DNA from: Escherichia coli
GTDB taxonomy: Bacteria; Pseudomonadota; Gammaproteobacteria; Enterobacterales; Enterobacteriaceae
Assembly (NCBI RefSeq): GCF_003334785.1
Contig: NZ_QOWV01000005.1
DNA length: 64,000 nt
Direction: 5' to 3' (one strand)
Shown here: positions 46,330 to 47,645 of the stretch, piece after piece
Position numbering within the stretch: position 1 is the stretch's first letter
How the letters are laid out: each line of letters opens with the position of its first letter
Translations under genes and position numbers: made by a program
The notes under the pieces: model-generated
The model's database searches: none
Seen by the model: the letters and a program-made list of their open reading frames with translations, nothing else
What the model was told of the DNA's origin: nothing

Positions 46330-46658
46330 ATAAGCGTTATAAATGGGTGGAACCTGTAAAGACTTCTACTCATTTATATTGTTTGTCGCCTCTGAAAACT
46401 CCTCCATTTTACCCATCCAGGGCTAATCATTAGCATTCTCTACAAATTCTGTGGCATTAATTTTTCGCTGGAGTGAAAATTATTGCGGTAAAGTTTGGTA
46501 GATTTTAGTTTGTATAGAGTTATTTTAAATATTTACCTTTTTAATCAATGGATTAAGTGCTCTTTAACATAATGGATGTGTTGTTTGTGTGATACTATAA
46601 AGTTGGTAGATTGTGACTGGCTTAAAAAATCATTAATTAATAATAGGTTATGTTTAGA
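46330..46658 (+). promoter_or_regulatory. AT-rich CRISPR leader
   Basis: About 330 bp AT-rich non-coding stretch immediately 5' of the first repeat, in crRNA orientation. Confidence 0.7.
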
Positions 46659-47053
46659 GTGTTCCCCGCGCCAGCGGGGATAAACCGGCAAAAACCGGGC
46701 AATCGCAAAAAGGCGTAATGTGTTCCCCGCGCCAGCGGGGATAAACCTGTGTTTGCGGCATTAACGCTCACCAGCATTTCGTGTTCCCCGCGCCAGCGGG
46801 GATAAACCGACGTGGTCATGGGTGCTGCTGTTGCAGAGCCAGTGTTCCCCGCGCCAGCGGGGATAAACCGAGCAGATACACGGCTTTGTATTCCGTGCGC
46901 CCGTGTTCCCCGCGCCAGCGGGGATAAACCGAATAGCAATAGTCCATAGATTTGCGAAAACAGGTGTTCCCCGCGCCAGCGGGGATAAACCGGAGCCTGA
47001 CGAGACTACTGAGGCCGTTCTGTCGAGTTCCCCGCGCCAGCGGGGATAAACCA
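46659..47053 (+). CRISPR. Type I-E-style CRISPR array: 7 repeats of 29 bp, 6 spacers of 32 bp; no cas genes in the window
   Basis: Repeat GTGTTCCCCGCGCCAGCGGGGATAAACCG at 46659, 46720, 46781, 46842, 46903, 46964; terminal variant GAGTTCCCCGCGCCAGCGGGGATAAACCA at 47025. Confidence 0.97.
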
Positions 47054-47507
47054 CCATATAACCCGTTATCTCTTTCTCAAGTTTTTATATTAGCAGTACT
47101 TGTAATAAGCAACATATCCACGTAACACCTCATGTTCAAAATAGTTCTCCATGCCAGAGAGGTTCACAATTATCGATACAAAAAATTAAATTTAATCAAA
47201 GTGTTATTTGTATGATTCTTAAATCGTTAAGAAATTTTAATCTATTATTTTTTTAATATTGAATTAATGCCTGTTAATTTTTTCTTTAGAATAACAGTGT
47301 ATTTTTTAAGCTTGTTATTCATTGGTTAAGTAATAAATCTGGAAGTTTGTCTTTGTTTTGAGGCTAATGAGTGGTTTTACATAACCGCCTCTATACGCTG
47401 TTGATGAATAGTTCTTATGAATAAAGATATCCAGTTCATACTTTAAGTGAAAATTGATAAAGTGCGATTCGTATTGTCTTTTATTCTAAAGACATCGAGT
47501 GTAGTTA

Positions 47508-47645
47508 ATATTCCTTGTAAAAACAGGGATAAACCGAACTAGTTAAAGTTTTTATTATGTTCCCTGCATCAGCGGGGATAAACCGGACTTGTTATCATTT
47601 TTTAAGTTGTCGAACTTATGTTCCCCGCGTCAGCGGGGATAACCA
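47508..47645 (+). CRISPR. Degenerate mini-array (about 3 decayed repeats) behind a second AT-rich leader
   Basis: …CAGGGATAAACCG, then ATGTTCCCTGCATCAGCGGGGATAAACCG (47557-47585), a 32-bp spacer, then ATGTTCCCCGCGTCAGCGGGGATAACC (47618-47645). Confidence 0.8.

Follow-up and report, generated by a model that had tools for sequence, protein, structure and literature searches.

The window, a stretch of 64,000 nucleotides of Escherichia coli DNA, carries the known K-12-type CRISPR-II locus, and the type I-E cas genes of its source strain were most likely deleted by way of two copies of IS186; we put the probability of this reading at about 0.9. The type I-E components of E. coli are split between CRISPR-I, which lies between iap and cysH and comprises CRISPR2.1 and the cas-E genes, and CRISPR-II, which lies between ygcE and ygcF and consists either of one array (CRISPR2.2-3) or of two, CRISPR2.2 and CRISPR2.3, 0.5 kb apart (PMC3903273). 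The arrays of the window occupy the second of these positions, between ygcE and ygcF (queE), and are two in number, with about 0.5 kb of AT-rich DNA between them. The locus, its nomenclature, its spacers, the leader requirements and IS186-mediated cas loss are all already published. Gene annotation was transferred from strain MB06232 (99.987% identity to the window, no indels), and the features are collected in Table 1.

Table 1. Features of the CRISPR-II region and of the end of the window (window coordinates)
Feature	Position	Strand	Remarks
queE (ygcF), upstream flank	45648..46319	+	MB06232 annotation; TGA stop ends at 46319
CRISPR2.3 leader	46320..46658	+	339 bp, 30.5% GC; TTTAGA abuts repeat 1
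CRISPR2.3 array (= CRISPR2, CRISPR-II, array II)	46659..47053	+	7 repeats of 29 nt, 6 spacers of 32 nt
Repeat 2	46720..46748	+	3' end CCT instead of CCG (PAM-derived position)
Terminal (leader-distal) repeat, GAGTTCCCCGCGCCAGCGGGGATAAACCA	47025..47053	+	GAG...CCA, 2 differences
AT-rich stretch between the arrays	47054..47507	.	454 bp, 28.2% GC
CRISPR2.2 mini-array	47508..47646	+	three decayed repeats; identical in K-12
ygcE (FGGY-family sugar kinase), downstream flank	47692..49170	-	annotation transferred from MB06232
hok/sok toxin-antitoxin, intact, after cysH	63610..63904	+	Rfam sok 63610-63767; hok CDS 63752-63904
IS186 terminus, 77 nt	63924..64000	-	100% match to IS positions 1269-1345

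The main array keeps a 61-nt period, with repeats starting at 46659, 46720, 46781, 46842, 46903, 46964 and 47025 and six spacers of 32 nt each, all of them unique; the 61-nt spacing recurs five times in register. Five of the seven repeats are identical to GTGTTCCCCGCGCCAGCGGGGATAAACCG. Relative to the type I-E (type 2) repeat consensus GWGTTCCCCGCGCCAGCGGGGATAAACCG, which is given as published in PMC3338789, seven copies in the window differ at 0-2 positions and three more are decayed. The 26-nt repeat core, with up to 3 mismatches allowed, was found nine times in the window and not once in 100 dinucleotide-preserving shuffles, and the RefSeq annotation labels the same interval as CRISPR. The CRISPR-DR families of Rfam gave no match in the window at the gathering score, which carries no information, since Rfam covers a small number of repeat families. 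Open reading frames spanning the array were set aside as artefacts of reading through the repeats. The array of seven repeats and six spacers reported at 46659-47053 by the first-pass annotation was confirmed, with spacers agreeing letter for letter, and its assignment to type I-E-style arrays between queE and ygcE is supported. A stem-loop as recognised by Cas6e, with a 7-bp stem and a 4-nt loop, was predicted in each of the ten repeat copies (-15 kcal/mol for the intact repeats).

Two of the repeats of the main array deserve comment. The last one had been described as mutated; it does differ at two positions, but its GAG start is not decay, since the repeat consensus starts with GWG and GAG is the other normal variant (PMC3338789). 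As for repeat 2, Swarts et al. 2012 reported CCT in place of CCG in the corresponding repeat of K-12 CRISPR 2.3, the last repeat base being PAM-derived (PMC3338789).

The window is oriented in reverse relative to MG1655. Between 46321 and 47700 a single base differs from K-12 MG1655 (position 47299, inside the AT-rich stretch; 1 SNP in 1380 bp), and direct comparison revealed the same six spacers in the same order in MG1655. Both primers used for K-12 CRISPR 2.3 (PMC3338789) match exactly, BG3414 at 46497-46519 in the leader and the other at 46815-46833 in spacer 3. The comparison of spacer order with reference E. coli arrays, proposed earlier as a means of typing the strain, ended in identity with K-12 MG1655. 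It had also been held that an array identical to that of a reference strain with a cas operon elsewhere would make the locus ordinary, and for the array this is what was found, K-12 being such a strain. A non-K-12 array had been suggested by the absence of K-12 from the top-ranked genomes, the first ranking having favoured genomes with extra spacers or IS insertions over K-12; the identical spacers and the single SNP refuted that idea.

From 46321 to 46658 the leader shows no differences from K-12 MG1655 and is identical to that of REL606 at 337 of 338 positions (99.7%). Its last 60 nt or so resemble the CRISPR2.1 leader of K-12, and it qualifies as an AT-rich leader with a conserved repeat-proximal segment of about 60 bp. 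The earlier description of an AT-rich leader followed by a second AT-rich stretch was borne out (30.5% and 28.2% GC, respectively, versus 50.7% for the whole window). The leader is required for spacer acquisition (PMC3384332). A scan for consensus promoters and terminators returned sites no more often than in shuffled sequences and no strong plus-strand promoter in the leader; transcription from the leader is taken from the cited literature and not from sequence analysis of the window. The AT-rich stretch between the arrays was considered as a second leader and rejected, since it shares with the leader only word matches of 7-11 nt. Because there is no meaningful similarity between the two, we regard this stretch as the AT-rich sequence of 0.5 kb by which a single CRISPR2 array is divided into CRISPR2.2 and CRISPR2.3 (PMC10910852, PMC3903273).

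The repeats of the mini-array lie at 47508-47536, 47557-47585 and 47618-47646, with 10, 4 and 5 ungapped differences from the consensus, and the third of them has a 1-nt deletion. The spacers between them measure 20 and 32 nt. A mini-array of decayed repeats with several substitutions had been placed at 47508-47645; the decay stands, and the end was corrected to 47646. The view that a single locus displays graded repeat decay also holds, the 0-2 differences of the main array contrasting with the values above. In the most decayed repeat (47508-47536), whose sequence is identical in K-12, 10 of the 29 positions are changed and the 7-bp hairpin still forms, with the paired double substitutions C9T+G18A and C11T+G16A and one G-U wobble. 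These paired substitutions could reflect past selection for the hairpin or, alternatively, quasi-palindrome-templated mutation.

No cas gene is annotated for the 64-kb window in two indel-free, ~100% identical genomes, whose alignments cover window positions 1-26500 and 26330-64000, in agreement with the first-pass annotation, which had seen none in the 64 kb; thus none of the cognate cas3, Cascade genes, cas1 and cas2 was found within the window. In K-12 the cas genes lie directly past cysH, which is the very point where the window breaks off. Similarity of K-12 to the window stops at 63754, the start of hok, and K-12 retains only sokX, followed by cas3. In the window the type I toxin-antitoxin locus hok/sok lies between cysH and an IS, whose terminus begins 19 nt after the hok stop codon, and the window ends inside the element. 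The name IS421 given by PGAP and the IS186 (IS186A) annotated in MG1655 denote the same 1345-bp element. It occupies the position where cas3 or a cas deletion scar follows in other strains, and its hok-side flank is identical in cas-less, intermediate and cas-positive strains.

The source genome probably has no functional I-E cas operon, which would make its arrays "orphan", because its eight closest single-IS relatives all lack cas. In 8 of 8 (MB06232, EC416, RM10410, FORC_081, NCTC9040, BR1220, WP7-S17-ESBL-04 and ECCTRSRTH03) the order is cysH-hok-IS186-short (truncated) array-iap without cas genes, and three of them, BR1220, WP7-S17-ESBL-04 and ECCTRSRTH03, are top-ranked for both ends of the window. 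The contiguous cas-less layout cysH-hok-IS186-array-iap was found in 277 of 5426 genomes, and REL606 has the same layout. The I-F cas genes at infA-clpA are absent in MB06232.

The arrays might instead be served by an I-E cas operon of the E1 variant located just beyond the IS186 at the end of the window, CRISPR-II being the second, distant array of that system; we consider this unlikely. The IS186 terminus cannot serve as proof of cas loss and was rejected as such, since Z1323PEC0013 has the same hok-IS186 junction and flank, followed by cas3...cas2. Moreover, many genomes have cysH-hok-IS186 but lack the contiguous cas-less layout (by an estimate from the spread of the genome ranking, about as many as the 277), and in K-12 a cas operon at a distance of ~17 kb, immediately past cysH, serves the identical arrays. 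On the other hand, the identity of Z1323PEC0013 over the cysH-IS query is no more than 99.2%, and the annotation gives its cas7e as frameshifted, whereas all eight best matches of the window (~100% over 25 kb), including the three top-ranked for both ends, are without cas. HSP425, the only close relative examined that has any cas gene, carries cas3, a casA fragment, a short cas2e and an array between two IS186 copies and is without annotated casB, cas7, cas5, cas6e and cas1. Z1323PEC0013 is the one strain examined in which a complete cas-E operon follows this junction, and with cas7e (9870-10926 of that locus) frameshifted, the system may be defective even there. ES4 keeps a cas3 fragment. The two possibilities predict different sequences at the far flank of the IS186: in a cas-less source it would read GGGTTTTTCCCCACCGTTCAGG, followed by an array of 4-5 spacers and iap, and in a cas-positive source GGGTAAAACCCCGCGTACTG, followed by cas3.

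The mechanism of cas loss by IS186 can be read from the flanks of the element in the relatives, and we infer it for the source strain. In Z1323PEC0013 and HSP425 a duplication of 10 bp, GGGTAAAACC, borders the hok-side IS186. HSP425 has a second IS186, which interrupts a CRISPR2.1 spacer and has its own duplicated 10 bp, GGGTTTTTCC. In MB06232, BR1220 and REL606 (the three checked) the single IS carries GGGTAAAACC towards hok and GGGTTTTTCC towards the array. Hybrid flanks of this kind are what homologous recombination between two IS186 copies in direct orientation is expected to leave behind. In the source strain, recombination between an IS186 next to hok and an IS186 inside CRISPR2.1 would have deleted the cas operon: cas3, the Cascade genes and cas1-cas2 would be gone, together with the leader and a portion of CRISPR2.1. 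Almendros et al. 2014 inferred that IS186 had brought about the loss of the leader, the cas-E1 genes and a portion of CRISPR2.1 (mBio 5:e00767-13, PMC3903273), and proposed hypothetical intermediates with two IS copies (PMC3903273), of which HSP425 appears to be a sequenced example. The flank analysis provides a sequence-level confirmation of the recombination model and names genomes which, like HSP425, resemble the intermediate. The array-internal IS186 of HSP425 (~12380-12430) lies inside the spacer AGTTAAGAGGGGGTTTTTCCCCACCGTTCAGG, with the motif G5-N5-C4. IS186 prefers GC-flanked targets, and this spacer fits that preference, as if the spacer had created an IS hotspot inside the array.

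In K-12, where the cas genes are present, the leader drives production of pre-crRNA, and Cas6e cuts the repeat hairpins to give 61-nt crRNAs. Cascade with its crRNA finds protospacers beside an AAG PAM, Cas3 degrades the target, and Cas1-Cas2 add 33-bp units at the junction of leader and repeat 1. Spacer gain in CRISPR 2.3 was observed in 74% of plasmid-cured K-12 clones (PMC3338789), and expression of Cas1 and Cas2 led to expansion of K-12 array II (PMC3384332). BL21-AI has no cas genes, and its array, with the same leader and repeats, still acquires spacers and is the standard substrate of adaptation assays, while the leader-less remnant on the iap side showed no spacer acquisition (PMC3384332). 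In a cas-less source the arrays would be inert remnants, for which transcription would be possible and processing and interference would not; with the leader and first repeat intact, they would take spacers again if Cas1-Cas2 were supplied. We infer that in a cas-less host the arrays of the window would be inert for immunity and still integration-competent.

The spacers of the window are widespread. At least one of the six is shared by 1707 of the 5426 complete E. coli genomes, and 911 of 5426, among them K-12 derivatives and a large number of wild isolates, have 80% or more of the spacer set in one place. The most widely shared is spacer 6, which is leader-distal; B strains and O111:H8 are among its carriers, and such a spread is what an ancestral spacer would show.

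The left 25 kb of the window are ~100% identical to K-12 laboratory strains. The collection contains no exact counterpart of the window; a few mismatches per 25 kb separate it from the best matches. Only 5 differences from K-12 were counted across 44566-59969 (~15 kb), versus about 70 across 60328-63697 (cysJ-cysH, 3.4 kb). Because the array is surrounded by a K-12-like clonal frame, its identity with K-12 reflects common descent. The jump in SNP density at ~59969-60328 (in cysJ), which extends to 63697, marks a recombination boundary at the edge of CRISPR-I and cas. At this edge next to CRISPR-I, and there only, the allele is a different one, in keeping with the module exchange of Almendros et al. 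For typing, the combination of the six-spacer CRISPR2.3 with an intact hok/sok and IS186 after cysH indicates a phylogroup-A-like, K-12-related clonal frame, and it also points to a non-K-12, probably cas-less, CRISPR-I locus in the source strain.

Other parts of the window yielded observations unrelated to the arrays. One initiator tRNA-Met gene lies at 3603-3679 (minus strand) between amiC and mltA, where MG1655 has three in tandem (metZ, metW and metV); several K-12 assemblies align in this region with 0 or +110 bp, showing that the copy number varies. Rfam matches to small RNAs (CsrB at 26551-26910, plus strand; GcvB at 8165-8370, minus strand; ES036 at 5107-5149, plus strand) lie at the expected positions and show nothing unusual.

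Database searches with the spacers, recommended by the first-pass annotation, yielded a phage portal relative for spacer 2 and, among the matches listed, no plasmid or other chromosomal target. In the phage search of the array (E ≤ 1) only spacer 2 (46749-46780) had a plausible match, 29/32 to portal genes of the HK97 type in siphophages of Klebsiella and E. coli, and it also matches phage-like plasmid records and one E. coli prophage portal gene. Positions 2, 6 and 12 are mismatched, and the triplet upstream reads GCG in place of AAG or AAT. We take the portal gene for a diverged relative of the target of spacer 2, not the target itself. Positions 6 and 12 are unpaired in I-E Cascade and position 2 belongs to the seed; at -1 the phage has G, against the T that closes repeat 2. 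The match of spacer 2 agrees with reports that the matches of E. coli spacers lie mainly in prophages (PMC10910852). A match of spacer 3 to a Shewanella capsid gene (E = 0.1) and a match to a Corynebacterium phage were treated as chance. Apart from the same portal gene in phage-plasmid-like records, the plasmid searches brought up nothing but other CRISPR arrays. Among the matches listed in E. coli chromosomes, the only one beyond the arrays was the diverged portal gene, with no exact protospacer and no self-target. Spacers of the main array and the mini-array matched the E1 and E2 cas regions no better than shuffled spacers.

These searches bear on whether the arrays are retained for a purpose. 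That the CRISPR2.2 repeats and the unchanged six-spacer array are kept in cas-less lineages by selection, and not by clonal inertia, is in our view very unlikely; the hairpin-preserving paired substitutions in repeat 47508-47536 are the sole hint of selection. If selection were at work, the arrays could, for instance, provide a ready memory that returns to use once recombination brings back a cas-E module, or could give rise to a cr-like RNA with a hairpin. A specific cas-independent or cas-directed function, exerted by anti-cas spacers or by a cr-like regulatory RNA from the mini-array, is more doubtful still. The six-spacer set is indeed unchanged in hundreds of genomes, cas-less ones included, and all three decayed repeats fold into the 7-bp hairpin, one of them by means of two paired double substitutions. 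However, the comparison with the E1 and E2 cas regions gave no such match, the prophage portal gene was the only non-array chromosomal target among the matches listed, and the conservation is explained by clonal descent, with 5 SNPs in 15 kb relative to K-12. The idea of anti-cas spacers or a cr-like regulatory RNA was abandoned, no complementarity beyond that of shuffled controls having been found. To our knowledge, there is no route by which the RNA of a type I-E array could be processed or used without Cas6e and Cascade.

That the repeats are a chance or non-CRISPR tandem repeat, as the lack of an Rfam CRISPR-DR match at the gathering threshold might suggest, has practically no probability in view of the nine core matches against none in shuffles, the exact 61-nt period with unique 32-nt spacers, the RefSeq annotation of the interval and its identity to an experimentally characterised K-12 locus.

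Orphan arrays of another kind have reportedly been described in E. coli by Almendros et al. 2016, namely type I-F CRISPR4 arrays with anti-cas spacers. These resemble the arrays of the window in being cas-less arrays kept in the chromosome, but they differ in subtype, repeat and locus, and the spacers of the window show no anti-cas match. Related too are the CRISPR-I arrangements of Almendros et al. 2014: the layout and flank evidence of the closest relatives fit their model, although the window itself includes no more of the IS than its first 77 nt. E. coli B (REL606, BL21 and BL21-AI) shares the order cysH-hok-IS186-truncated array-iap, the hybrid IS flanks and spacer 6; its array differs in having 13 spacers, among which only spacer 6 of the window's six is found, and REL606 has an extra IS150 between cysH and hok. 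The closest counterpart of the arrays is CRISPR-II of K-12 MG1655. K-12 differs beyond cysH, where it has an E2-variant cas operon and CRISPR2.1 and only the sokX remnant of hok/sok, whereas in the window IS186 follows an intact hok/sok, and divergence from K-12 sets in at about 60.3 kb. At CRISPR-II itself, the two have in common the position, the leader, all 7+3 repeats, the six spacers and their order, the CCT end of repeat 2 and the AT-rich split.
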